Shown here: piece after piece, positions 27,289 through 45,762 of the stretch | Numbering within the stretch: the stretch's first letter is position 1 | How the letters are laid out: the number at the start of each line of letters is the position of its first letter | From: Bacillota bacterium | Lineage (GTDB): Bacteria > Bacillota > SHA-98 > Ch115 > JABLXJ01 | Direction: 5' to 3' | Assembly: GCA_012839815.1 (NCBI GenBank) | Contig: DUMQ01000136.1 | Span: forward strand, 19,125 to 83,124 | DNA length: 64,000 bases | Notes under the pieces: model-generated | Told to the model about the DNA's origin: nothing | Databases searched by the model: none | The model's input: the letters and a program-made list of their open reading frames with translations, nothing else | Position numbers and translations under genes: made by a program

Positions 27289-27801
27289 TTACCCATCATC
27301 CCTAACATGCCGGTAGTTCCAGGCCCGTAACTCCGCAAGCTCAATACCGTCAGGGTATTTCAGCGAGCCGCCGCCGCTCGCCATCACCCTCAATTCCAGA
27401 GCCCGCTCGGGGTTATCATGGAGGTAATCTACGAGATTTCGGATGAGGCACATGGTAGCAGGGGTTATATAGTGCTCGATTCCCTCAACCTGCCCGTCGA
27501 CATCCACCCCGCGGGCCGCCCCGAGGGCGCGCAGGAACGCTTTGAGCATCCTGTCGCGCCACACAAGGAACCGCCCTATCTCCTCGCCCCTGTGCGTGAG
27601 GACGATATTTCTATACTTCTCGTACCGCACAAGGCCGGCCTCGTCAATCTTCTGGATCATGCGTGTGATGGACGAGGGCTGGACGTCGAGCGCCTCTGCA
27701 AGCTCGACCATGCGGAGAGAGCCCCGCTCCCGGATCATCCTGTAAATCATTTCAAGATAGTCCTCCATACTCTCCGTCAGCATGATATCACATCTCCTCA
27801 A
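27289..27801 (-). CDS. DtxR/MntR-family metal-dependent transcriptional regulator.
   Basis: MLTESMEDYLEMIYRMIRERG..VELAEALDVQPSSITRMIQKI matches MntR/DtxR. The likely start is M7 at 27783. It lies downstream of feoB. Confidence 0.85.
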   Translation of the reverse strand: MRRCDIMLTESMEDYLEMIYRMIRERGSLRMVELAEALDVQPSSITRMIQKIDEAGLVRYEKYRNIVLTHRGEEIGRFLVWRDRMLKAFLRALGAARGVDVDGQVEGIEHYITPATMCLIRNLVDYLHDNPERALELRVMASGGGSLKYPDGIELAELRAWNYRHVRDDG

Positions 27802-29363
27802 CGCATCCCAAGCAATCTAGCTAGCCACGTTACGCCAAGACACGCAGCCGATGCGACAAGCAACGGCAGGATGACGGCGATGAGCGCCCACTTGGCACTC
27901 CCTGCCTCCTTGCGTATGGTCCAGAGCGTCGTGCCGCAAGGGTAATGGAGGAGCGAGAAAAGCATCATCGAGAGGGCCGTCAGCCACGTCCAACCGTGCC
28001 CCTCCACGAGCAGTGCCCTGAGGGATTCGAAGCTTTCGACCTCCAGCATCTTCCCGGCCGAGAGATAGCTCATGAGCAAAATGGGAAGGACGATTTCATT
28101 GGCCGGGAGGCCGAGGATAAAAGCCATTATAATGAAGCCATCCAGCCCCAGAGCGCGTCCAAAGGGGTCGATGAAAGCTGCAGCGTGAGCTATGATGCTC
28201 TTGCCCTGAATAAAGGTGTTGGCCAGGACCCAGGCGATGCCCCCGGCAGGGGCCGCCACAGTAACGGCCCTCTGCAGGACAAATGCCGTCCTGTCAATTA
28301 ACGACCGGATGAGGATCCGCCCCACCTGAGGTTTTCGATACGGGGGCAATTCGAGCGTAAACGATGATGGCACGCCGCGTAATATCGTCCCAGCGAGAAG
28401 CCAGGACACCAGGAGCGTTATGGCGATCCCGACCAGCACGAGCCCCACAACTACGGCCGCGGCCACGGCTGTGCTGTAAGCGGGCATCACGGCCCCACCC
28501 ATGAAAATCGTAGCAAGCGTAATCAGCAGAGGGAAGCGGCCGTTACAGGGAACGAAATTATTCGTAAGAATTGCGATCAGCCGCTCCCGTGGTGAATCTA
28601 TGATACGGCACGCAATGACGCCCGCCGCGTTGCAGCCGAAGCCCATGCTCATCGTTAGCGCCTGCTTGCCGTGCGTCCCCGCGCGTTTAAAGAGGCGGTC
28701 AAGGTTGAAGGCCACGCGTGGGAGATAGCCCAGGTCCTCAAGCAGGGTGAAGCACGGGAAGAATATGGCCATGGGAGGCAGCATGACCGAAACAACCCAT
28801 GCCACGGCCCGGTAAACGCCGAAAACGAAAAAGCCGTGAAACCAGCCCGGTACGCCCAGCCTCACGCACAACTCGGATAGGCGCGCCTCGATCCCGAAAA
28901 ACAGCGACGCCAGCACCCGGGATGGGTAATTCGCCCCTGAAAGTGTTATCCAGAACACGATGCCGAGCAACAGGAGCATTATGGGGTAGCCCCACAGGCG
29001 TGAGGTCAGGATATCGTCGAGCCTTTGGTCCCAGTCGATCACCCGTGACCCCGGGGACCGGGCGCCCTGCCTGCCCGCCCCGCCTGCAACCACCTTGCGG
29101 GCGATGGCTTCGGCTTGCCTGTAGATGCTGCCTACTATGCGATCATGGATATCGCCCTCCAGGATATCGCCATCCGGCTGACGGCCTGGCATCCCCGTCC
29201 TACCTGGCCCCCGGGGCTGGCCCAGACTGCCGCTACTATCATTTGCCGGCTTATTTGGCTTATTTGTAGTTACCGGCTTATTTGCCGGCTGTTTAGGCTT
29301 CCTGGTAACCGCGCATGTACTGGAGTCGATGCTCTTTATCCTGTCCGTGAAGGTCCTGTCCAT
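27798..29363 (-). CDS. feoB: Ferrous iron transporter FeoB, membrane (gate/nucleoside-recognition) portion.
   Basis: Multi-TM protein with FeoB core motifs (MSMGFGCNAAGV, SPRERLIAILTNNFVPCNGR). Its first 75 aa are a low-complexity K/P/N-rich stretch, and the ORF overlaps the G-domain ORF in another frame. Confidence 0.8.
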   Translation of the reverse strand: MDRTFTDRIKSIDSSTCAVTRKPKQPANKPVTTNKPNKPANDSSGSLGQPRGPGRTGMPGRQPDGDILEGDIHDRIVGSIYRQAEAIARKVVAGGAGRQGARSPGSRVIDWDQRLDDILTSRLWGYPIMLLLLGIVFWITLSGANYPSRVLASLFFGIEARLSELCVRLGVPGWFHGFFVFGVYRAVAWVVSVMLPPMAIFFPCFTLLEDLGYLPRVAFNLDRLFKRAGTHGKQALTMSMGFGCNAAGVIACRIIDSPRERLIAILTNNFVPCNGRFPLLITLATIFMGGAVMPAYSTAVAAAVVVGLVLVGIAITLLVSWLLAGTILRGVPSSFTLELPPYRKPQVGRILIRSLIDRTAFVLQRAVTVAAPAGGIAWVLANTFIQGKSIIAHAAAFIDPFGRALGLDGFIIMAFILGLPANEIVLPILLMSYLSAGKMLEVESFESLRALLVEGHGWTWLTALSMMLFSLLHYPCGTTLWTIRKEAGSAKWALIAVILPLLVASAACLGVTWLARLLGMR

Positions 29364-30096
29364 GAAAATACCTCCAACCCAGAGGTAGCTGGGTCAGCGT
29401 CTGCGGCGCTATATCCCGTATCGCATTGATCATAGTCGTGTCGCCCTCGATAAACCGGAGAGCCACCCAGCGGGGGTTCAATCGATCGCCGATAGCCCTG
29501 GAGAGGCCTGGCAACAACTCCTGAATAGCACGCTCCAGCTCGGGTTCGTAGGCGACACACCTTGGGGAGGTTGCATACACGCCGGTTACAATATCGTAGA
29601 CAATGTCTTTCAGCGCGACCAACCCCTCCCCGCTGCGAGCGACCGTGGCCACGGCTGGGACGCCAAGCTCGTGTTCCAGGGCCTCAACATCCACATATAT
29701 TCCCTTGCGCTGTGCCTCATCTATTAGATTTACGCCCACCACCACCCTGCCGGTGATCTCGATGACCTGGAGAACGAGATTCAGGTTTCGTTCAAGGCAT
29801 GTCGCGTCAACCACAACGATGACGGCATCCGGCCGCCCAAAGCATAAGAAGTCGCGTGCGATTTCCTCCTCTACGGAGTTGGCAAGAAGTGAATACGTCC
29901 CGGGGAGGTCCACCAGGGTGAACGTCCTGCCCCTATGAGTGTATCTCCCCTCAGCCCGTGATACGGTCTTCCCGGGCCAGTTTCCCGTGTGCTGGCGCAG
30001 CCCGGTGAGGGCGTTAAAGATCGTGGTCTTTCCTGTATTAGGGTTTCCCATCAACGCGACAACGGGTTGGAGGCGCTTGCCGTCCACCTGGGTCAT
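29293..30096 (-). CDS. feoB: Ferrous iron transporter FeoB, N-terminal GTPase (G-domain) portion. It is split from the membrane portion.
   Basis: G1 GNPNTGKTT, G3 DLPG, G4 NLID. 267 aa, ending 71 nt inside the downstream ORF. Confidence 0.85.
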   Translation of the reverse strand: MTQVDGKRLQPVVALMGNPNTGKTTIFNALTGLRQHTGNWPGKTVSRAEGRYTHRGRTFTLVDLPGTYSLLANSVEEEIARDFLCFGRPDAVIVVVDATCLERNLNLVLQVIEITGRVVVGVNLIDEAQRKGIYVDVEALEHELGVPAVATVARSGEGLVALKDIVYDIVTGVYATSPRCVAYEPELERAIQELLPGLSRAIGDRLNPRWVALRFIEGDTTMINAIRDIAPQTLTQLPLGWRYFHGQDLHGQDKEHRLQYMRGYQEA

Positions 30097-31487: not shown

Positions 31488-31700
31488 CTGGAGCCCCTTG
31501 CTTCCAAATCGGTGTATCATTTGTTACGTGCTGTCCATCCCAAATCCGCGGGGGAAATACGAATAATATATAAAGGCAAGCAGGCGGGTATCGCTATGCC
31601 ACTGTAGATACTGTCCTGGCACAGAGAGTGTGACTGTGCTATGTGTTATCGCAGAAATCATGCTGTCGCAGGGAACGTAGAACGCGAGGGGGCATCTAGC

Positions 31701-34184
31701 ATGAGATTCGTGAAACCCGGGGGAAGGCGGGGGATTATACATATACTCATTCTGGGGACAGTCCTCCTGGGGGTAGTCCTTGTAGTCCTGACATCGGCCG
31801 CTCCTGCGGGGGGACCCCTGGGGAAGCTCCAGGACGCCGTGAACCTCCAGCAGGTCGAGAAGCTAGGCCTGACCCTTGAGGCCCGCACGCGGCTCTCGGA
31901 GGACGGGTTCGTCATCTTACCATCAAACAGTTTCGAGGTGTATGACGTGTACCTGCAGGCCAAGAAGATGGGCATACCAGCCTTCGTCACGAGCGACGCG
32001 GTGCTGCACATCTCCCACCAGCTCTTTGATTATGCCCTGCGCCTGGCGGAACATGATTATCTCCTGCCGGAGATAACCAAGTTAACACACGACCTCCTCA
32101 CCAGCTTTGATTCCGCCTATCTCCGGGCTCAGCGCGACTTAAAAGTCCCGCTGAATAATCCGCCGGATAGCCGTGGAAATAGCACCACCAATAGTACCGC
32201 TAACCCCGCTGACCTGGGTCTCGTATGCCTCCGCGAGAATGTTGCGTTTTTTGCCGTCGCCGCGAGGCTCCTGAATCCTCATACCAAGGTCCCGGACTAT
32301 GTGAAAGACATCGTGGACAAGGAAATGGCTCTCATCGAAGGTCACTCAGGGGTCGCATCTTCGCCACTCTTTGGGATTGAGGAGGACTATACCCAGTATA
32401 TCCCGCGGGGCCATTATACGCGGGCGGAGGAATTCAAACGTTATTTCAAAGCCATGATGTGGTACGGCAGGATGTCCTTCGTCCTCGATGCAAGGGAACC
32501 CATAGGCGACCAGGCGCGTAAGAATGCCCTCAAGGTCATATTGCTGGCCCGGGCATTGGACGGCGCGGTGGAGGGAGCCCGGGCACGCTGGCAAGGCATC
32601 TATGATATTACATCCTTCTTCGCCGGCGCCTCGGACGACCTGTGCCTGGAAGACATCGCGTCTGTCGTGTGCGAGGTGCTCGGCCCTGCTGCCGCGGTCG
32701 GGCCCGCGCCAGCGCTCGCGCCCGCACCCGGCCACGGGCACGACCCGGCTACCGAGCTTAGCCGCCTGAGCCGAGAGTTGAGCCGCGACAAGGATAAGAT
32801 AGATGCGTTTCTGCGACGCGTTAAGAGCCTAAGACCGTCACGCATCTCATCGATCACGGGTGCCAGTGCTGGCGACTCAAGTGGGCCTGGACGGCCTGGC
32901 CAGCCACCAGTCGGGCCTGCATCATCGCCGGGGGCTGGCGGAACGGATGGCGATAAGGATACGGCGCCGCCGCTCAGGACGCTCCGGTTCATGGGTCAGA
33001 GGTTCATCCCGGATTCATATATATTTGAACAGCTCGTATTCAGGAATGTCGGGCGCTATACCGGGTATGATAAGCATGGCAATAACCATAACAAGGTTAA
33101 AGGCAAGAGCCAGCCGCCATTTACACTGGGCGGGGCCGGCATCAGGGCATTCCCGCGGGGACTCGATGTCATGGCGGTGCTTGGCTCGGACCTTGCCCTC
33201 GACATTCTGAGGCGGGACGGCGATACCTCCTATGAAGGCTACGATGAGCAGATGACGAAGCTGCGGGCGGAATTCGGGGCGCTTTCCGAGGCTGACTGGC
33301 AGCAAAACCTGTATTACTCGTGGCTTTACGCGATCAAGCCCCTGCTCTCGGTTGAGGGCGTGGACCGCCTGCCATTCGCGCGGGACGCCTGGCTCAGGAA
33401 GCAGCTCACCACGGCGCTGGGCGCCTGGACTGAGCTGAGGCACGATACCGTGCTCTACGCCAAACAGAGCTATACCAGTAAAGGTTTCCCGGTGCAGAAA
33501 CCCGGGCTGGCCAGGGGCTACGTTGAGCCCGTGCCGGAGGTTTACTCGAGAATACGGAGCCTTATAGACCGCCTCTCCGCGATGCTTGATGCCGAAGCCA
33601 GAACCAACCCGGCGGCCAGCCGCGGTCAGCCTGGACAGGGCGGGCAACGTGAGCAACGTGGGCAGGGCGTGCAGAGCGCGAGCGTGAGCGTGAGCACAAG
33701 CCCGTCGTCGTCTGGCTGGGATGAATTCATTGCGAAGCTCGATTCCTTCGCAAACCTCCTCGGCCAGCTCGAGGTCATCTCCCGCAAGGAGCTCGCAGGT
33801 AAACAGCTGACGGAAGCGGAGTACAGGACCATTGATGAGATCGGGCAATTCCTCAAGGGGATAGCTACGCTCTCGCCCGCCCTCAGCCAGCGCGTCGGGG
33901 GAGCGAGCACAGGCTCAGGCCCGGGTGGAGGCCCGGGCACGGGGAGTGCGGGCGGGCGGATGGCGCTCGTCGTGGACGTGCATACTGACTCTAATAGTCG
34001 CATGGTCCTTCAGGAAGCAGTCGGCGACCCGGCAACCATCCTCGCCCTCGTGAAGGTCGATGGGCGATGGACGGTGTGCCAGGGCGCGGTTTATACCCAC
34101 TATGAATTCAAAAGACCGGCATCAAACCGCATGACTGATGAAGAATGGCAGGATCTAAACCACGACCCCGGCAAGCTCCGCTAG
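31701..34184 (+). CDS. Large secreted or membrane-anchored hypothetical protein (about 827 aa; possibly a DUF3160-type protein).
   Basis: ATG at 31701 with a GAGGGGGC RBS. It has an N-terminal TM/signal (IIHILILGTVLLGVVLVVLTSAAPA). There are several low-complexity inserts rich in A/P/G/S. No catalytic motif was recognised. Confidence 0.7.
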   Translation: MRFVKPGGRRGIIHILILGTVLLGVVLVVLTSAAPAGGPLGKLQDAVNLQQVEKLGLTLEARTRLSEDGFVILPSNSFEVYDVYLQAKKMGIPAFVTSDAVLHISHQLFDYALRLAEHDYLLPEITKLTHDLLTSFDSAYLRAQRDLKVPLNNPPDSRGNSTTNSTANPADLGLVCLRENVAFFAVAARLLNPHTKVPDYVKDIVDKEMALIEGHSGVASSPLFGIEEDYTQYIPRGHYTRAEEFKRYFKAMMWYGRMSFVLDAREPIGDQARKNALKVILLARALDGAVEGARARWQGIYDITSFFAGASDDLCLEDIASVVCEVLGPAAAVGPAPALAPAPGHGHDPATELSRLSRELSRDKDKIDAFLRRVKSLRPSRISSITGASAGDSSGPGRPGQPPVGPASSPGAGGTDGDKDTAPPLRTLRFMGQRFIPDSYIFEQLVFRNVGRYTGYDKHGNNHNKVKGKSQPPFTLGGAGIRAFPRGLDVMAVLGSDLALDILRRDGDTSYEGYDEQMTKLRAEFGALSEADWQQNLYYSWLYAIKPLLSVEGVDRLPFARDAWLRKQLTTALGAWTELRHDTVLYAKQSYTSKGFPVQKPGLARGYVEPVPEVYSRIRSLIDRLSAMLDAEARTNPAASRGQPGQGGQREQRGQGVQSASVSVSTSPSSSGWDEFIAKLDSFANLLGQLEVISRKELAGKQLTEAEYRTIDEIGQFLKGIATLSPALSQRVGGASTGSGPGGGPGTGSAGGRMALVVDVHTDSNSRMVLQEAVGDPATILALVKVDGRWTVCQGAVYTHYEFKRPASNRMTDEEWQDLNHDPGKLR

Positions 34185-34590: not shown

Positions 34591-35718
34591 GTGCCCGACG
34601 GCGGCATCATGGCTCTGCTGGGCCCCAACGGCGCCGGTAAAACGACAACGGTGCGGATGCTGACGGGCCTCATCTCCCCCACCGAGGGAGAGGCTACTGT
34701 GGCGGGGCTCCCGCTCCGCGGGAATGAGAACCGCATCCGGGCACAAGTGGGGGTCCTCACTGAGACTCCAAGCCTCTACGATAGGATGCGCGTAGCCGAC
34801 TACCTCGCATTTTTCGGGCGGCTCTACGGGATACCAGGCGTCGAACTGGGTCCGCGCATTGAGCAGTTTTTGAGGCTTTTTGACCTCCAGGATCACCGGG
34901 ACAAGAGGATCGGGAGCTTTTCAAAGGGCATGAAGCAGAAGGTCGCCCTGGCACGGGCCCTTCTGCACGACCCAAGGGTCATCTTCTTGGATGAGCCTAC
35001 CTCGGGCTTGGACCCCGAAAGCGCCAGGGTGTTGCGGGATTACATTCTATTTCTCAAAGAGGAACGAAGGCGCACCATACTGGTCTGCACGCACAACCTG
35101 GACGAGGCGGAGCGCCTCGCTGACTATATAGGGATAATAAGCAGGGGGAGGCTCCTGAGGTATTCGCGCGCCGAAGAGCTGAAGACGGAGGGTCTAAGAG
35201 AGAGGGAGTTCAGGATCACGATAGACCTGAGAGAATCGAGGAACCTGAGGGTCTTAAAGGCAGGCCCAGGTGAGAGCCTCAAGGGGAATACCGCCAATGT
35301 CACCGCTAATATCACCACTAATGTCACCCCTGGTGTCTCCGTGGATATCAGCGATGTCATCGTTGATGCCGTTGAACTCGTTAAGAACACCGCGGGCGTA
35401 AAAAAGGTGACAAATGCGAGACAAGAAAGCACATCAAGGCAAATACAAGGGCGAAGACAGGATCCCGAAGGTCAATATCCTGGCACCCCGTCGCGCCTCT
35501 CTATATCTATAGTCTTTTCTACAGAGGATCCTCGCTCGACAAACCCGCAGGTCCTGCGTAGCCTCCTGGACCGGGGTTTCGCCGTGATATCCTGCGAGGA
35601 GACCACGCGGAGCCTGGAGGATGTCTACCTCGAAATCGTGGGCCATGAAGAGATGGCCAATGGGAGATCGTGGACCTCGATGGCTCCTGAGGAGGGCCGG
35701 AGCTATGGCCGTAAATAG
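34591..35718 (+). CDS. ABC transporter ATP-binding protein (ABC-2/DrrA-like) with a roughly 130-aa C-terminal extension.
   Basis: Walker A GPNGAGKTT, signature FSKGMKQKVAL, Walker B IFLDEPTSGLD. The frame stays open upstream to 34516 (..IECHNLTKKFNGKVAVDGISF) with no canonical start codon, so the N-terminus is probably about 20 aa longer. The C-terminus contains the NxT repeat NTANVTANITTNVT. Confidence 0.85.
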   Translation: MPDGGIMALLGPNGAGKTTTVRMLTGLISPTEGEATVAGLPLRGNENRIRAQVGVLTETPSLYDRMRVADYLAFFGRLYGIPGVELGPRIEQFLRLFDLQDHRDKRIGSFSKGMKQKVALARALLHDPRVIFLDEPTSGLDPESARVLRDYILFLKEERRRTILVCTHNLDEAERLADYIGIISRGRLLRYSRAEELKTEGLREREFRITIDLRESRNLRVLKAGPGESLKGNTANVTANITTNVTPGVSVDISDVIVDAVELVKNTAGVKKVTNARQESTSRQIQGRRQDPEGQYPGTPSRLSISIVFSTEDPRSTNPQVLRSLLDRGFAVISCEETTRSLEDVYLEIVGHEEMANGRSWTSMAPEEGRSYGRK

Positions 35719-36433
35719 AGCCTTTTTAGTTGCAGCGCGTGAATTAAGAGAGACCATCCAGGACACCAGGTTTGTGTATACAACCGTGGTAACTGGCCTG
35801 GCCCTTCCCGTCTTCTACGCCTATATCAGCATGAGCACGGTGAGGGCCCTCCCCACAGGGGTGGCAAGCACCATGTTCCCGGTATGGTTTTTGCTTTCGA
35901 GCATACTACCGGCTTCATTCTCGATGCAGCTTGCCCTGGCGAGCTTCGTCGGCGAAAAGGAGAACCGGACCATCGAGCCGCTCCTGGCCGCGCCCATGAG
36001 CAACCGGGAGCTATTCGTGGGCAAGGTCATAAGCTCGTTCATCCCCCCGCTCGTGCTGGTCGCAATCGTCCAGGCGGTTTTTCTCGGGGCGAGCTTTGGT
36101 TTTGCGCGGCTCAAATACAGGATGCCGTTCTCGCCCGACCTGGCCGTGATCGGCCGCACCGCCCTGCTCGTCCCGCTCGTTATCCTTTTCATGGTCGCCT
36201 GTGCCGTATTGATCTCGGCGCGCTCCACCAGTATGAGGTCGGCGCAGCAGGTCGGGGCCTTTATAAACCTCCCCATCATTTTCCTGGTCGTTTATAAAGC
36301 CCCGCAAATCCTGGATATTATGGGTAAGAGCGCGCCGGATGTGCTGGCCGTGGGCGTGGCGGTGAATATACTGCTCCTGCGCATCGGCATCAGGTTATTT
36401 AACAGGGAGAGCATTCTCACACAGATTGGCTGA
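35705..36433 (+). CDS. ABC-2 family transporter permease.
   Basis: Its ATG overlaps the ATPase stop (ATGGCCGTAAATAG), which suggests translational coupling. Six TM helices. Confidence 0.8.
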   Translation: MAVNRAFLVAARELRETIQDTRFVYTTVVTGLALPVFYAYISMSTVRALPTGVASTMFPVWFLLSSILPASFSMQLALASFVGEKENRTIEPLLAAPMSNRELFVGKVISSFIPPLVLVAIVQAVFLGASFGFARLKYRMPFSPDLAVIGRTALLVPLVILFMVACAVLISARSTSMRSAQQVGAFINLPIIFLVVYKAPQILDIMGKSAPDVLAVGVAVNILLLRIGIRLFNRESILTQIG

Positions 36434-39988: not shown

Positions 39989-41620
39989 TCACTTACGCTG
40001 GATATACCCGCCATGCACGGTGCCGGCGAGCCGGGCGAGGCCGGGGCCGATAACGGGGATGAGGCGGAGCTCCCTCGGCGTGAGCTCCCCCATGAGGACG
40101 ATGATGGCACCGTACACCAGCGCGCCGGCAAATATGGCCGCAATGGTCGCCAGCGAGTTGCTGAATGTAGCCTGGACGAGCTTGTTGTAGAATACCTTCA
40201 CTATCGCTCCCATGACAAGCGCGGCGAGGCCCGATTTAAATGCGGCTCTCGCCGCGCTCGCGCCAACCCTTGCCCGGTCGAAAATCCAAACGCCGGCGAA
40301 GTTCAAGATCCCGGCAGTCATAAATCCGAGCGCCGTCCCCAGGGCCGCCCCGCGTATTCCAAGCCCGGGCACGGCCGTGAACATAAAATTGAGCGATGCC
40401 CCGACGGTAGCCCCGATAAGTAAGCTCCTGACAGGGACCAGCGTCCACCCGAGACCTTGAAGGATGCCGGATGAGGTCTGCTGGACACACAGGAATAAGG
40501 CCCCTATGGAGAGGATGGCAAGCGGCTCCCCCGCTTCGGGACAAGCGAATAGCATGCCGCATATCTGCCTCGCCAGGATGCGAAGCCCCACAAAGGATGG
40601 CACCCCTATTAAAATGGTTAGCCTGATCGCCTCTTGAATGCGCTCACTCACAAGCCTTCGATTGCCGGTGGCCCATGCCGCTGATATGGATGGAACCAGG
40701 CTCGTGGCAAAGGCCGTGGTGATCACGGTCGGGAGGCCCACGAGGCTCATTGCCATGACAGCGAACTGGCCGTAGAGTCTTGTTGCCTCAGGGATATCGA
40801 ACCCCGCCACCTTTAGCCGCGCAGGAACTATAGCCGCGTTTGTAAGGTCCGTCAGCGGCACGACGAGCGAGGCGATGGTTACAGGCAGCGCGAGCGCCAT
40901 GATTTCCCTGAGGATGCTCAGGGCCGGAACATCATCCCCCGGTCCGGGTCCGGGTATTGTCCTCGCCGTGCCCACCAGGGCTCCGGGTGCCCTCTCTTTG
41001 AAGTAGATCCCGAGAAGCAACACAAGCCCGGCCAGGGCTCCGGTCACCGCCCCGAAAGCCGACCCAGCGGCCGAGAATTCCACGCCGCCCGGCAGGAGCA
41101 TGTATGCCAGCAGAAGGGCGGTAATGACCCTGACAACCTGTTCGATGATTTGCGAGGTCGCCGTTGGAGTCATAGTTTGAAGACCCTGGAAATAGCCGCG
41201 CAATGCCGACATGGCCGCGACAAGCACGATTGCCGGGGAGATGGCCCTTATTGAGTAGTAGGACCGGGGGTCCCCTAGCACCCTCGTAGCCAGGAACCTC
41301 GCCCCGGCGAAAAGGGAATACGACAGAACGGCACCAACGGCGATCAAGATAACCGTTGCAATCCTGAAAACCCTCGCCGCCCCCCTTGGATCGCCGTGGG
41401 CGATACGCTCGGCGACGAGCTTGGAGATGGCGACGGGGAGGCCTGACACCGATATGACGAGCATCGTGCCGTAGACGGGGTAAGCCATCTGGTAAAGGCC
41501 GACGCCCTCTGCACCAATGAGCCTGGTGAGGGGGACGAGATAGATGGCACCGAGCACCTTGCTTATGAACCCGGCCACAGTCAAAACCATGGCCCCGCGC
41601 AGGAACGACTGCTTCCGCAT
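39989..41620 (-). CDS. MOP-superfamily polysaccharide/lipid-II-type flippase, SpoVB-like (stage V sporulation protein B family).
   Basis: 543 aa with about 14 TM helices. The N-terminus FLRGAMVLTVAGFISKVLGAIYLVPLTRLIGAEGVGLYQMAYPVY matches the SpoVB/MurJ-like pattern. Confidence 0.75.
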   Translation of the reverse strand: MRKQSFLRGAMVLTVAGFISKVLGAIYLVPLTRLIGAEGVGLYQMAYPVYGTMLVISVSGLPVAISKLVAERIAHGDPRGAARVFRIATVILIAVGAVLSYSLFAGARFLATRVLGDPRSYYSIRAISPAIVLVAAMSALRGYFQGLQTMTPTATSQIIEQVVRVITALLLAYMLLPGGVEFSAAGSAFGAVTGALAGLVLLLGIYFKERAPGALVGTARTIPGPGPGDDVPALSILREIMALALPVTIASLVVPLTDLTNAAIVPARLKVAGFDIPEATRLYGQFAVMAMSLVGLPTVITTAFATSLVPSISAAWATGNRRLVSERIQEAIRLTILIGVPSFVGLRILARQICGMLFACPEAGEPLAILSIGALFLCVQQTSSGILQGLGWTLVPVRSLLIGATVGASLNFMFTAVPGLGIRGAALGTALGFMTAGILNFAGVWIFDRARVGASAARAAFKSGLAALVMGAIVKVFYNKLVQATFSNSLATIAAIFAGALVYGAIIVLMGELTPRELRLIPVIGPGLARLAGTVHGGYIQRK

Positions 41621-41733: not shown

Positions 41734-43335
41734 CTAGAAGCGGCGCACAGGCTTCAGGACAACGATCGGGGTTTGCTGGTCATCATTGCCGAAGGGATTG
41801 TCCGAGAGCAGTTGGTGGAGCACCGCCTGGTCGATGCCATCCGAGGCTGCGAGGATGTCGACGCAACCCTTGTCGTTCACGTCAGCTATAAAGGCATCAA
41901 CGCCGGTCTCCCTCTTTATCCTGGCCACGACCTCCTCGGGGTGGGCAGGCCCAAGCACCACATGCTCGTCGTAAGGGGGCATGGTCCCGGCTATATCATC
42001 GATAAAAGCCAGGGAACGACCGGCAACCCTGTAGAAATCCCCTTTTCGCCCCACCATCTTCCCAAGCGCAGCGGCGGCCGCGCCCAGCAACACCCGGACA
42101 GCGCCGACCTCATTTATCGCGAGCTGCATGGCCGGCGGGGTAGCCAGGCTCCCATCCTTCCCCGGGAATTTGCTCAGAAATCGCGCCAGCCTCCTCGGCC
42201 GGACGGTCTTGGGCAGGATCGCGCGGCCCTGGGTTATCGCCACGACGCTCTCGGCTATTCCAATAACATCCCCGGGCGCGGCTATATCCCGGGTATACAT
42301 CTTGACAACCTCGACAATATCGTCTTTTTCCGTTATTATGTGAGTCCGGATGGGTATCCGCTCTATTCTCCCCATCTGTGCACCGCCGGCGCCACCTTCA
42401 ACCTGCTCCCCCGCCCCCGGCTTCCCGCGCTCCCGCCCGGCGAAGAAGCGTTTGATGCCGTTGAAGATCCCCTCGGCAACCCGTTCCTTGAAAACAGGGC
42501 TTCGTAACAGCCCCTCCTCCACCCAGTTGGAGATGCAGACAGCCTCAACTATTATGACGGGAATGCCAATATTACCAGGAAGCCTGGTCGCATCCCTTGC
42601 CACCCCTCTATCTTTCAGGCCAAGCCTCTGGATGACGGCATCGTGTACAAAGACGGCAAGCTCCTCGCTTGCGGGCTGTGAGGGGTTGTAAAGGGTTCTG
42701 AGGCCGCCGAGTTCCGCGTTCCCAGAGGAATAGGTATGTATGCTCACAAAAACCTCCGCGCCAAACCTGGCAGCAAGATCGAATCTTTGCTTAAGAGACA
42801 TGCCCACGTCGTGGGTGCGCGTCAAAAAAGGCGTCGCCCCGGCCTCTTTCAAATATCTGTGAAGGTAGCGCGCAATATCGAGCACGACATTCTTTTCGAC
42901 GAGGTTTACCGGCCCCCTGCCGCCAGCATCCATCCCGCCATGACCGGGATCTATCACGATAACCTTATCGGACATGATCCTCCTGATCGCTGAGCGGTCA
43001 AACGCTATTACCAGACGCACGGGAAGCGACGGGGACGATCCATCCTGGAAGAAGGTGAACTGCGATGGATGTTCGAGCCCAATGGCCATAAACACCCCGC
43101 GCCTCGCCGCCCGGCTGACCTCAATCTCGGTGAGGAGGCCGTCATTCACCTTGATCGGGCCTTCAGGCATGTTGAGCTCGCAGTCAGGAATCGTGACCGC
43201 CGCCGTGAGGGCATCTTTCCACCGGATGTCGCATTTTATAGGCGTAGTGGCCTCTACGATAACCCTCGAGGTCGCCTGCCCCGAGACATCATCGACGTGT
43301 TTTTTCGACCAGATATTGGTTACCTTCCCGGCCAT
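41734..43335 (-). CDS. Fusion ORF with three parts. It has a roughly 110-aa N-terminal region of unknown function, an N-acetylmuramoyl-L-alanine amidase (Amidase_3) domain, and a C-terminal domain resembling F420-0:gamma-glutamyl ligase (CofE-like). No signal peptide.
   Basis: The Amidase_3 pattern is present (IVIDPGHGG, EVFVSIHTYS, LKDRGVARD, PVIIVEAVCISN). After a Gly-rich linker, the sequence MGRIERIPIRTHIITEKDDIVEVV..GDVIGIAESVVAITQGRA..ADVNDKG..NPFGNDDQQTPIVVLKP follows the CofE-like pattern. This CofE assignment rests on comparison with a CofE sequence recalled from memory and carries the most uncertainty in this record. Confidence 0.7.
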   Translation of the reverse strand: MAGKVTNIWSKKHVDDVSGQATSRVIVEATTPIKCDIRWKDALTAAVTIPDCELNMPEGPIKVNDGLLTEIEVSRAARRGVFMAIGLEHPSQFTFFQDGSSPSLPVRLVIAFDRSAIRRIMSDKVIVIDPGHGGMDAGGRGPVNLVEKNVVLDIARYLHRYLKEAGATPFLTRTHDVGMSLKQRFDLAARFGAEVFVSIHTYSSGNAELGGLRTLYNPSQPASEELAVFVHDAVIQRLGLKDRGVARDATRLPGNIGIPVIIVEAVCISNWVEEGLLRSPVFKERVAEGIFNGIKRFFAGRERGKPGAGEQVEGGAGGAQMGRIERIPIRTHIITEKDDIVEVVKMYTRDIAAPGDVIGIAESVVAITQGRAILPKTVRPRRLARFLSKFPGKDGSLATPPAMQLAINEVGAVRVLLGAAAAALGKMVGRKGDFYRVAGRSLAFIDDIAGTMPPYDEHVVLGPAHPEEVVARIKRETGVDAFIADVNDKGCVDILAASDGIDQAVLHQLLSDNPFGNDDQQTPIVVLKPVRRF

Positions 43336-43460
43336 ATATCTACTGCCCTTCTGCCCGGATGGGTTTCTTGTGTCTCCTGTCTGAATAGGTCCTGGGTTAG
43401 TTTATGCACAGGCGGCACATTACATGTTATTCAGAAACCCACGAGTTGTGAATCAGGCGT

Positions 43461-45263
43461 TCATATGGCCAGCTTCAACCTGGTCGCAAGTGAAAGCATC
43501 TCCTCTGCATGCCTGAGGGTGATATCGGTAAGGTTGTTGCCTGCCAGCATGCGCGCGATCTCGGTGACCTGCTCGTCCCCGGCCAGCTTGCGGACGCGCG
43601 TCCGCGTCCTGTCGCTGGAGACTTCCTTCGATATATGAAAGTGAATATCCGCCATGCTGGCTATCTGGGGCAGGTGGGTGACGCAAATGACCTGCCTCAG
43701 CTTGCTGACCTTTACGAGTTTCTCGGCAACGGCTTGGGCGGCGCGGCCACCCACACCGGAATCTATTTCATCAAAGACCATCGTAGGAATCTCGTCGTGG
43801 ACGGCAAGCACGGCCTTGATGGCAAGCATGATGCGCGAAAGCTCGCCTCCGCTCGCTATGCGCGCAAGAGGCCGGGGTTCCTCGCCCGGATTCGCGGAGA
43901 GCAGGAATTCAACGAAGTCCGCGCCCTTTCCATTGACCTCGACGCGTCGTCCCCCGTGTCCGTCAACGCCGGCACCGGCACCCGCGCCAGCGTCGGCATT
44001 GGTGCCAAACGGGATGCCGCCCGTAGATTCGCGCTGCACGATATCGACTTTGAACACAGCGCCCGGCATGCTGAGCGCCTCGAGCTCCCTCATAACCTCG
44101 CCTTCGAGCGCCCTTGCGACGCGCCCCCGCGCCTCGCTCAGGGTAGCACATAGCCTGCCCAGGTCGGCTTCGAGCGACCCGATCTCGCCCTTGAGCTCCT
44201 CGATCCTCTCCCCGCTCCGCTCGATCTCTCCTAGCTCAGCCTCGACCCTGGCCTTATACTCGAGGATGGCATCCACCGTATCCCCGTATTTCCTCTTGAG
44301 CCGGGCGATCAAGGCAAGCCTGTCCTCTATCTCGGCGAGCCTCTCAGGATTGAATTCCAGGTCATCCCTGTAAGACCGAAGCCGCAGCGCGGCCTCCTCG
44401 ATTCCAATGGCTGCATCCTCAAGGAGCTCGACAACGCCTCCCAGCGAGCTGTCTATCCTGCTGGCGCCTCTCAACTCGCTCAGGGCGAGAGCGACGAGGT
44501 CACGCGCAGGCATGCCCTGGAAACCATCCCCCGCGCCGCCATCGCCCCCGTTCAGGCAAACATAGGCGCGAGAGCACTGTTCGAAGAGCTTCTCGGCGTT
44601 CGCCAGGACCGATCGCTCCCGGGCGAGCTCCTCCTCTTCACCGCGCTTGAGCCGCGCTTCCCCTATCTCCCCGACCTGAAACCGGAGAAGATCAAGCCTC
44701 TGCATCTTATCCCTATCGTCCTGCAGGAGCCCGGAGAGCTCTGCCTTAAGAGCCTGCAGGGTATGAAATTTCGAGGCAACCTCGGCGCGCAGGGCGAGGA
44801 GCTCATCCCCGCCGAAATTATCCAGGAGGTCCAGGTGCTTGCTTGGAGAGAGCAGGGACTGGTGCTCATGTTGCCCGTGAATATCTACCAGATAGTCACC
44901 GATCGAGGAGAGTGTAGCAACGGTAACCGTCCTGTCATTAATACGGCAACGGTTCCGGCCCGAACTCGTGACCTCCCGGGATACGATCACGGTACCTCCA
45001 TCGGTTTCTATACCCAGATCAAGCAGTGCAGCGTGCGCCGGGGAACCCTCGTCAACGGCAAAGACGGCCTCCGCATACATCGCCTCGGCGCCGGACCGTA
45101 TTGCATCGGAGCTTGCCCTCCCCCCCAGAAGGAGACCCAGGGCATCTATTATGATGGATTTGCCGGCGCCCGTCTCGCCGGTGAGGATATTGAGGCCTGG
45201 TGCGAATTCCAAGGAAAGCTCATCGATAAGCGCAAAATTCTTAACATGCAGCTCAAGCAGCAT
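43461..45263 (-). CDS. recN: DNA repair protein RecN.
   Basis: MLLELHVKNFALIDELSLEFAPGLNILTGETGAGKSIIIDAL. The likely start is at 45263, and the ORF as called extends to 45332. It contains a Gly/Ala-rich insertion. Confidence 0.9.
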   Translation of the reverse strand: MLLELHVKNFALIDELSLEFAPGLNILTGETGAGKSIIIDALGLLLGGRASSDAIRSGAEAMYAEAVFAVDEGSPAHAALLDLGIETDGGTVIVSREVTSSGRNRCRINDRTVTVATLSSIGDYLVDIHGQHEHQSLLSPSKHLDLLDNFGGDELLALRAEVASKFHTLQALKAELSGLLQDDRDKMQRLDLLRFQVGEIGEARLKRGEEEELARERSVLANAEKLFEQCSRAYVCLNGGDGGAGDGFQGMPARDLVALALSELRGASRIDSSLGGVVELLEDAAIGIEEAALRLRSYRDDLEFNPERLAEIEDRLALIARLKRKYGDTVDAILEYKARVEAELGEIERSGERIEELKGEIGSLEADLGRLCATLSEARGRVARALEGEVMRELEALSMPGAVFKVDIVQRESTGGIPFGTNADAGAGAGAGVDGHGGRRVEVNGKGADFVEFLLSANPGEEPRPLARIASGGELSRIMLAIKAVLAVHDEIPTMVFDEIDSGVGGRAAQAVAEKLVKVSKLRQVICVTHLPQIASMADIHFHISKEVSSDRTRTRVRKLAGDEQVTEIARMLAGNNLTDITLRHAEEMLSLATRLKLAI

Positions 45264-45270
45264 GAATCCC

Positions 45271-45762
45271 TCATCCCCTAAGCTTGTTGAATCTCTCAAG
45301 GAGCTCAGGCACGGCAGACTTGGGCCGCACAACTACAAGTATGGTATCATCGCCAGCGATCGTCCCTAGTATTTCCTTCCAGTTGAGGTCATCAATAACA
45401 TCCGCCACGGCATGGGCGTTGCCCGTCAAGGTCTTTATGACGAGCAGGTTCTCGCTGTAGTCAAGGCTTACCACGGAATCATGGAACAAGTGCTCAAGCC
45501 TTGAGAGCACATCCCCGATAGCCTGCTCGTGGGCAACGGCATAGCGGTACCCGCCGTCCCCCGTCGGCAGCTTTGTGAGGCGCAGTTCCTTTATATCCCT
45601 TGAAACCGTGGCCTGCGTTACGTCTATCCCCTGGCTCCTGAGCGCCTGCGCGAGCTCCTCCTGGGTCTCTATGCTCCTGCTCCCTATGATCTCGAGGATC
45701 TTGGCATGCCGGATCGCCTTAGCGCTCTCAACCCTACCGATCATATATTCCCCTCTCTTCAC
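45271..45762 (-). CDS. argR: Arginine repressor.
   Basis: [42 protein letters not shown] matches ArgR/AhrC. Confidence 0.9.

Follow-up and report, generated by a model that had tools for sequence, protein, structure and literature searches.

A natural fusion of a signal-less peptidoglycan amidase with a CofE-fold domain, and its tentative role in the editing of muramyl precursors

What does a protein do in which an N-acetylmuramoyl-L-alanine (MurNAc-L-Ala) amidase without an export signal is joined to a domain with the fold of CofE, the F420-0:gamma-glutamyl ligase? The question is raised by a gene at 41734..43335 on the minus strand of a 64,000-nucleotide stretch of contig DUMQ01000136.1 from a Bacillota bacterium (hereafter the window). 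Its open reading frame (ORF) encodes 533 residues and is complete, with the stop codon inside these coordinates and a start at the first start codon past an in-frame upstream stop, the longest possible reading. The product is identical to GenBank HHV63042.1, annotated "hypothetical protein" in a Bacillota metagenome-assembled genome. Three folds, an intact amidase site, the lack of an export signal, recurrent fusion or adjacency of the two halves and recurrent gene neighbourhoods are established below. Taken together, they suggest that the gene may encode a natural cytoplasmic two-enzyme protein, part of a conserved module that edits muramyl precursors, a reading to which we assign a probability of roughly 0.35. 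The parts and motifs of the protein are:

42997..43335, minus strand: N-terminal AMIN-fold beta-sandwich domain, residues 1-113, without a signal peptide
42451..42960, minus strand: Amidase_3 (N-acetylmuramoyl-L-alanine amidase) domain, residues 126-295
42940..42942, 42895..42897 and 42736..42738, minus strand: Amidase_3 zinc ligands H132, E147 and H200
42544..42546, minus strand: Amidase_3 catalytic residue E264
42373..42423, minus strand: Gly/Ala/Glu-rich disordered linker, residues 305-321, ending in Met321 (42373..42375)
41737..42366, minus strand: CofE-fold (F420_ligase-like) domain, residues 324-533
42223..42273, minus strand: CofE-like domain motif GDVIGIAESVVAITQGR
residues 445-451: CofE-like domain motif IDD...GT
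41872..41883, minus strand: CofE-like domain motif DVND
41767..41799, minus strand: CofE-like domain motif NPFGNDDQQTP

The initial annotation had described a single ORF with three parts, namely an N-terminal region of about 110 residues without a signal peptide, a canonical Amidase_3 domain and a C-terminal domain resembling CofE and the F420 ligases, and this layout was borne out by an AlphaFold2 model and fold searches and, for the second and third parts, by Pfam. In the model, built from 70 family sequences (mean predicted local distance difference test score, pLDDT, 90.9; predicted template modelling score, pTM, 0.89), AMIN-fold domain, amidase, linker and CofE-fold domain follow one another in one chain, and residues 305-321 alone are disordered (pLDDT < 50). 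With a pTM of 0.89, the three domains seem to form a compact unit, fixed relative to one another. The length of the linker differs between homologs.

The amidase half matches Pfam Amidase_3 (PF01520) at 132.4 bits (cut-off 27; E 2.4e-38) over profile positions 1-173 of 174, and the Amidase_3 fold was recovered from the predicted structure by fold search. The zinc triad H-E-H is kept in each of the fused homologs that could be aligned (42 of 42), and E264, the catalytic Glu, in 41; from this intact site, the amidase half is apparently active. By sequence it is a canonical MurNAc-L-Ala amidase, 35% identical to CwlV and closest to CwlV, CwlD and LytH-type enzymes, which are without the autoinhibitory helix. 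The nearest NCBIfam model is that of CwlD (TIGR02883), with a score of 100.8 bits, below the equivalog cut-off of 221.55, and relatives found by fold include poly-gamma-glutamate hydrolase and N-formylglutamate amidohydrolase. The top Foldseek match of the whole model is E. coli AmiC over 350 columns, a match that hence includes the AMIN domain. The N-terminal domain has the beta-sandwich fold common to the AMIN domains (PF11741) of AmiC and PilQ; its membership is by fold only, since the window protein gave no Pfam AMIN sequence match at E<=0.01. Conserved in the family are D65, G66, L67, H89, P105 and R114, together with the motif ITN(I/V)W close to the N-terminus. The first beta strand of the model begins at residue 3, and neither the window protein nor any of 70 family members has a signal peptide or an N-terminal hydrophobic segment. 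A cytoplasmic location is predicted on these grounds, and the nucleotide-dependent ligase fold of the partner domain agrees with it.

The C-terminal half has the CofE/F420_ligase fold according to Pfam and two independent fold searches. Pfam F420_ligase (PF01996) matches residues 329-475 at 33.0 bits in the full protein and 36.2 bits with the domain alone (cut-off 25), a match that takes in only profile positions 2-133 of 218; the threshold is passed by 14 of 14 diverse members of the domain family. The predicted structure has the CofE fold, with a Foldseek match to Archaeoglobus fulgidus CofE (E 8.4e-7), and profile-profile comparison (hhalign) with genuine cofE, represented by full-length genes from rhizobial and Streptomyces plasmids, gave E 4.2e-5 over 183 columns. 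The domain could be placed only by fold search and hhalign, single-sequence and profile searches of the PDB being insufficient; a Maf-like match (E 0.028) from the PDB sequences was spurious. Comparison was made with the CofE motifs SK(A/S)EGR, NAGID and (I/V)TD(T/S)xGRxxRxG. GDVIGIAESVVAITQGR lies opposite CofE GDIIVVAQKVVSKAEGR and DVND opposite CofE VTD, and of the motif residues G-D, V-V, G-R and the Asp of TD align. No other part of the protein is as conserved as this domain: 14 diverse members share 35 invariant columns, clustered at the positions of the CofE motifs, and its family has invariant motifs of its own (RTH, IDD..GT, NPxGN).

Could the domain then be a genuine F420-0:gamma-glutamyl ligase, and the gene one of F420 biosynthesis? 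The fold and the PF01996 score are what such an enzyme would show, but the idea is very improbable and was rejected on equivalog scores, motif differences and gene context. the NF009809 score of 15.9 bits is far below the cut-off (274) and TIGR01916 gives no match; the domain has about 210 residues against about 250 in CofE, 40 fewer, and is without the GRxxRxG loop and with Gln in place of a conserved Glu; and no F420 gene is among the recurrent neighbour families identified in 88 related loci, whereas the true cofE comparator genes adjoin npdG.

Within the CofE fold, the C-terminal domain falls into a large subfamily that is not of the F420 type. An exhaustive search with the domain found at least 864 related clusters at 50% identity, 132 of them at E<=1e-30. 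The subfamily occurs widely without an amidase, joined to other enzymes: besides Amidase_3, its fusion partners are AsnB-type amidotransferases (n=7), MurF, a PepV/Sapep-type M20 dipeptidase, a PgaB/IcaB-like deacetylase, GNAT, adenylate kinase and TPR repeats (representatives P0140, for MurF; P0245, P0265, P0230 and others; P0185; P0182; P0199; P0226). Most of these partners make or break amide bonds on carboxylates, as would suit a ligase, and adenylate kinase as a partner is in keeping with the use of nucleotides. The MurF fusion is given little weight because P0140 comes from a single 2.9-kb contig. A further class of the subfamily, about 400 residues long, carries an N-terminal membrane helix and a 190-residue domain without assignment; in Blackallbacteria (L095 and L096) a gene of this class is directly followed by an overlapping GNAT gene. 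P0096 (387 residues, on a 2976-nucleotide ENA contig) begins as a DAO-type oxidoreductase dependent on flavin adenine dinucleotide and switches in mid-motif (…LAESAVAITQRRAVLPES…) to a CofE-like sequence with 64% identity; a chimeric assembly or a frameshift is a more probable origin than a real fusion.

Whether the window gene is a natural fusion or two genes that have lost a stop codon between them was left undecided by the initial annotation, which had also placed the start of the third domain at an internal Met after a Gly-rich linker. The homologs show that the fusion is natural. A search of protein collections found about 46 clusters with both domains in a single ORF (38-56% identity, at least 89% query coverage), along with a family of about 300 residues that comprises AMIN and amidase only, stand-alone CofE-like proteins, and five proteins in the reverse order of CofE-like domain, AMIN and amidase. 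A metagenome scan seeded with the CofE-like domain gave 80 loci at 58-74% identity. An amidase is present in 76 of these, fused in 17 and encoded by a separate nearby gene in 59 (tandem upstream in 50, tandem downstream in 6, divergent in 3, as in L007); two of the four loci without one lie on contigs too short to tell. Conversely, no CofE-like gene was found within 7 kb around the amidase in any of 79 control loci, which surround unrelated, generic Amidase_3 genes from a scan of genome contigs.

The split relatives, too, bear on the junction. In Pelotomaculum propionicicum the halves are separate genes with overlapping stop and start codons, and in the Pelotomaculum pair of L005 (8001-8924 and 8921-9553) the start codon of the split CofE-like gene corresponds to Met321 of the window protein; no convincing Shine-Dalgarno site for internal initiation at Met321 was found in the window gene. 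The window's nearest relatives by CofE-like domain are split forms (about 70% identity), and the fused L106 and the split L119 share 84% identity in that domain. Fused and split forms interleave by sequence comparison; with the five proteins of reverse order, this shows that fusion has arisen repeatedly, in several lineages. An assembly artefact, lost stop or frameshift is therefore an explanation of negligible probability: two separate genes in 59 of 80 loci and a junction at a Met would suit it, but it is ruled out by a single ORF in about 46 independent clusters and, across many samples, in 17 metagenomic loci, by a variable linker and by several independent fusion lineages. Because the two units are fused or adjacent in most loci, they are taken to be functionally coupled, and the split relatives support this coupling, not a missed stop.

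Which genes accompany the pair? ORFs were called and clustered in the 88 related loci, which fell into 56 groups at 90% identity, and families were assigned by Pfam and NCBIfam. A pyruvoyl-dependent arginine decarboxylase (PvlArgDC; TIGR00286 at 140 bits, cut-off 107) is adjacent and co-oriented in 14 groups, and a pyridoxal-phosphate-dependent Orn/Lys/Arg decarboxylase (OKR_DC_1) holds the same place, also co-oriented, in 11 others, giving 25 of 56 groups with an arginine/lysine decarboxylase of either family. That two unrelated families occupy the same position, a non-homologous replacement, points to a functional link. Genes for lipid II or undecaprenyl phosphate occur in 22 groups (SpoVB in 8; Amj, an alternative lipid II flippase, in 4; DedA/VTT in 9; PAP2 phosphatase in 7), with lipid II flippases in 12, and a decarboxylase or a lipid-carrier gene is found in 43. 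Other recurrent neighbours are CwlD-like amidases, the S11 D,D-carboxypeptidase Dac, the spore lipoprotein YhcN/YlaJ, a CtpB-like protease and a YkuD L,D-transpeptidase. Dac, YhcN/YlaJ and CtpB are neighbours in Pelotomaculum-type loci, and the named carriers (Pelotomaculum, Peptococcaceae, Desulfotomaculaceae and Thermanaeromonas) are monoderm spore formers. Four arrangements are:

L122, 1335..6119: operon of CwlD-like amidase, AMIN-amidase, YkuD, Amj, CofE-like gene and PvlArgDC
L136, 3955..6873: operon of CofE-like gene, CwlD-like amidase and PvlArgDC, with the AMIN-amidase gene divergent
L005, 4157..11390, and about 9 similar groups: Pelotomaculum-type neighbourhood of CtpB-like protease, DUF7986, DedA/VTT, PAP2, AMIN-amidase, CofE-like gene, YhcN/YlaJ and S11 D,D-carboxypeptidase
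L088, 5559..8869: Orn/Lys/Arg decarboxylase gene overlapping the start of the fusion gene by 4 nucleotides

The first two are candidates for a compact "cortex modification" operon; their CwlD-like amidases score 218.4 bits (L122, near the cut-off of 221.55) and 177.6 bits (L136). PAP2 phosphatase is missing from L005 itself, and in 9 groups the module is accompanied by DUF7986, an uncharacterised family (SEC-C-like motif CPCGSGKPYEKCC). The fusion protein of L088 (P0054, 622 residues) is the most divergent fused homolog; just 3' of it, the opposite strand encodes an SLH-domain protein and an M20 peptidase.

The window itself comes from an endospore former. It carries spoIIIAA-AF, then accBC, xseA, ispA, dxs, tlyA, nadK, argR and recN, a gene order from spoIIIA to recN that is known from Bacillus, and the fusion gene follows recN. 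The features that flank the gene are:

39989..41620, minus strand: SpoVB-like MOP-family (MurJ-like) flippase gene, 113 nucleotides downstream of the fusion gene
43398..43452, minus strand: tentative promoter region in the 125-nucleotide gap after recN
43424..43452, minus strand: sigma-70-like TTCACA-17-TAACAT
43398..43406, minus strand: CATAAACTA, a match to the mother-cell sigma (sigma-K/E-like) -10 consensus CATAnnnTA

The SpoVB-like protein scores 348.9 bits with TIGR02900 (spore_V_B; cut-off 372.3) and matches Pfam Polysacc_synt, MatE and MurJ, and a terminator scan saw no terminator-like site between its gene and the fusion gene. Of the 17 fused metagenomic loci, 10 have a SpoVB-like gene directly 3' of the fused gene, as do L001 and L089, and three of the remaining seven are on contigs that end within about 700 nucleotides; this flippase gene is the conserved downstream partner in the window's lineage. 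Upstream, a conserved block of ferredoxin, pyridine-nucleotide oxidoreductase, DAO, aldehyde:ferredoxin oxidoreductase and ThiS-like genes precedes the fused gene in the SpoVB-linked fused lineage (L001, L089, L144, L153, L161, L164, L171, L175 and L177). The window is without this block and has recN immediately upstream instead. In Bacillus, recN is followed by spoIVB-spo0A, a place taken in the window by the fusion gene and the spoVB-like gene. The recN ORF (43461..45332, minus strand) has a TTG start and 23 extra residues ahead of MLLELHVKNF, and its true start is probably the internal ATG.

How might these parts work together? The substrates of the module would be muramyl-peptide precursors at the cytoplasmic membrane face, most likely lipid II bound for the spore cortex; the link to sporulation is suggested by spoIIIA and the Bacillus-like synteny in the window and by Dac, YhcN/YlaJ and CtpB in the Pelotomaculum-type loci. 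Amidase_3 enzymes cut the lactyl-carboxamide. In a first step, the AMIN and amidase unit would bind the MurNAc-peptide and hydrolyse the D-lactyl-L-Ala amide, freeing the lactyl carboxylate. Stem removal could take place only once lipid II has been made, after MraY and MurG, since MraY needs the pentapeptide. With a nucleoside triphosphate, the CofE-like unit would then convert the freed carboxylate to an activated acyl phosphate. This step is modelled on CofE, of the only known family that forms an amide on a lactyl carboxylate, in which guanosine triphosphate activates the phospholactyl carboxylate of F420-0 as an acyl phosphate that is then attacked by the amine of glutamate (PMC10861534, PMC8498797). 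In the third step, an amine would attack the acyl phosphate and re-form an amide; agmatine is the first candidate, because an arginine/lysine decarboxylase is next door in nearly half of the related loci. The product, flipped by SpoVB (or by Amj in other lineages), would give the glycan a muramic acid unit that is capped by an amine and has no peptide. Consecutive reactions would best explain why the two units have been fused repeatedly and in either order.

Several observations weigh against this reading, which is drawn from sequence, model and gene context. To our knowledge, an amidase acting on cytoplasmic lipid II has no precedent and would be potentially toxic, and we know of no report of stemless, amine-capped muramic acid; AMIN domains are otherwise periplasmic binders of peptidoglycan. 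The conserved Glu of the CofE motif is an invariant Gln (Gln369) in the CofE-like family, the GRxxRxG loop is deleted, and the Asp of NAGID has no clear equivalent, though D446 and D447 are near; a profile of the domain run against PDB sequences found CofE alone among structures, at a non-significant E of about 0.9. On account of these departures and this score, the domain may catalyse a different reaction or have a non-catalytic role. No decarboxylase is encoded in the 64 kb of the window, so that the amine link holds for the window protein by homology only, and in some lineages (Thermanaeromonas L003, the permuted L087) neither a flippase nor a decarboxylase is nearby. The evidence for a sporulation-type promoter is weak, because CATAnnnTA stands upstream in just two of eight homologous loci examined, the window and L001. 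With these points counted, the specific scheme, an undescribed cytoplasmic pathway of precursor editing in endospore-forming Bacillota in which lipid II is destemmed and a lactyl or stem carboxylate re-amidated before flipping by SpoVB or Amj, is held as tentative and, on balance, doubtful.

Apart from the two explanations rejected above, three others have to be weighed. The amine might go onto the stem peptide and not replace it, as in Selenomonas and Veillonella: the ligase would add agmatine, cadaverine or putrescine to a lipid II stem carboxylate (the D-Glu alpha-carboxyl or the free meso-diaminopimelate carboxyl), and the amidase would mainly dock MurNAc-L-Ala-D-Glu, or would proof-read or remove modified stems. 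Polyamine on the D-Glu alpha-carboxyl is established and is made at the stage of lipid intermediates, and neither study names the ligase (PMC10628300, PMC12826042). Decarboxylases in 25 and lipid II flippases in 12 of 56 groups would suit such a role, as would the fusions in the wider subfamily with MurF and AsnB-type amidotransferases, enzymes whose substrates are stem carboxylates, and L088, where the decarboxylase gene overlaps the fusion gene and an SLH-domain protein is near. It gives no clear reason, on the other hand, for a fully conserved hydrolytic site or for 95% co-occurrence of the amidase; the named carriers, all monoderm spore formers, are not known to have a polyaminated wall, and in loci from Veillonella, Selenomonas, Pelosinus and Megamonas (loci only) no CofE-like gene lies within 7 kb of the amidase matches. 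We regard stem-peptide polyamination as unlikely.

The protein could also be a signal-less sacculus hydrolase of sporulation like CwlC or CwlJ, made in the mother cell and getting to the peptidoglycan without being secreted, with the CofE-like domain as a regulator or nucleotide sensor that would keep the amidase in check, comparable to ActH with LytH and GerS with CwlD. CwlC serves mother-cell lysis and CwlJ is a spore-associated enzyme of cortex lysis. The binding of AMIN domains to polymerised peptidoglycan, the need of some CwlV/CwlD/LytH-type enzymes for protein partners, the spore-former context and the sigma-K/E-like -10 element upstream in the window and L001 would all agree with this, and the confident packing between domains could reflect autoinhibition. 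It leaves the linkage to decarboxylases and flippases unexplained, however, and the CofE-like domain, the best-conserved region of the protein, looks with its 35 invariant columns at CofE-motif positions more like an enzyme than like a regulator; the domain is also widespread without an amidase, joined to AsnB-like, MurF, PepV, GNAT and adenylate kinase domains. Such a hydrolase is accordingly given a low probability. Lower still is that of a soluble conjugate synthetase/amidase unrelated to the wall and similar to the glutathionylspermidine synthetase/amidase (Gss) of E. coli, whose ligase would couple a small carboxylate metabolite with agmatine or a polyamine and whose amidase would release it again. 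A peptidoglycan-amidase-type hydrolase beside a cytoplasmic carboxylate-amine ligase dependent on nucleoside triphosphate is the layout of Gss, and the decarboxylase linkage fits it; poly-gamma-glutamate hydrolase and N-formylglutamate amidohydrolase are fold relatives of Amidase_3, and the GNAT, AsnB-like and M20 partners of the wider subfamily resemble small-peptide pathways. The amidase is nonetheless a canonical MurNAc-L-Ala enzyme (E 2.4e-38; 35% identity to CwlV) with an AMIN domain, and the neighbours SpoVB, Amj, DedA, PAP2, CwlD-like, Dac and YkuD are all wall-related, which makes this an improbable account.

Precursor editing thus remains the preferred reading. The initial annotation had suggested intracellular processing or modification of muropeptides, and the lipid II flippases, CwlD-like amidases, Dac and YkuD found nearby fit that suggestion; what it did not include are the module's links with sporulation and decarboxylases and the placing of the C-terminal domain in a large CofE-fold subfamily not of the F420 type. 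Both halves belong to known families, while their combination, the cytoplasmic setting and the gene partners are undescribed: full-text literature searches for the domain pair, the Pfam accession and CofE-like proteins in sporulating Firmicutes returned nothing relevant, and in databases family members go only by the names "hypothetical protein" or "N-acetylmuramoyl-L-alanine amidase". The fusion has a substantial chance of marking a new pathway of peptidoglycan-precursor modification. If so, the stem peptide of peptidoglycan precursors could be removed and the carboxylate re-amidated inside the cell, a new chemistry of cortex or cell wall, and the non-F420 branch of the CofE fold, with its 864 or more clusters, would receive its first function, as a second family of peptidoglycan amide ligases independent of the Mur ligases. 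The presence of two unrelated arginine/lysine decarboxylase families in wall operons of spore formers would be explained, and the attachment of amines to peptidoglycan, biochemically known for decades in Negativicutes, would gain a cloneable candidate.

Two other loci in the window are recorded in passing. FeoB is encoded at 27798..30096 (minus strand) by two ORFs overlapping by about 70 nucleotides, one for FeoB_N/GTPase (29293..30096, 267 residues) and one for Gate/FeoB_C (27798..29363, 521 residues); a frameshift, a pseudogene or a natural split of FeoB could each explain this. A large DUF3160 protein of 847 residues (31641..34184, plus strand; Pfam E 9e-160) adjoins an ATP-binding cassette transporter pair (34591..36433).

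Among known systems, CofE and FbiB's N-terminal domain (PF01996; PDB 2PHN, 7ULD) share the fold of the C-terminal half, from which the window domain differs in its length, in Gln for Glu and in the missing loop. The CofE-like subfamily stands apart from them, with its own motifs (RTH, IDD..GT, NPxGN), other fusion partners and no F420 context. E. coli AmiC has the same order of AMIN and Amidase_3 and is the top Foldseek match (350 columns). AmiC, however, is exported to the periplasm by twin-arginine translocation, has an autoinhibitory helix and needs NlpD, whereas the window protein has no export signal, no helix insertion (Pfam profile positions 1-173 are covered without gaps) and an extra enzyme-like domain at its C-terminus. 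E. coli Gss offers an analogy only, as a cytoplasmic bifunctional protein with an amidase and a carboxylate-polyamine ligase dependent on nucleoside triphosphate and with a link to polyamine supply. There is no homology: Gss joins a CHAP amidase to an ATP-grasp ligase and acts on a soluble thiol, and neither CHAP nor ATP-grasp is in the window protein, in which Pfam finds Amidase_3 and F420_ligase only. The polyamination of Negativicutes, in which cadaverine or putrescine is placed on the D-Glu alpha-carboxyl, and MurT/GatD resemble the proposed module in forming an amide on a carboxylate of lipid II at the cytoplasmic face, and in Negativicutes the amine likewise comes from a dedicated decarboxylase (PMC10628300, PMC12826042). 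They differ from it in that MurT is a Mur-ligase homolog and not CofE-like, and in that those systems have no amidase.

CwlD is the best NCBIfam match of the amidase and among the top structural matches, with the same zinc site and a sporulation setting, and a CwlD-like gene is part of the module's operon in L122 and L136. It differs in having an N-terminal membrane anchor or signal and in acting outside the membrane, whereas the window protein is without either and adds the AMIN-fold and ligase-like domains. CwlD is the MurNAc-L-Ala amidase of the spore cortex and starts the formation of muramic delta-lactam. The chemistry proposed here would run parallel to that of CwlD, where peptide-free muramic acid is made and its lactyl carboxylate is then turned into an amide, the lactam.

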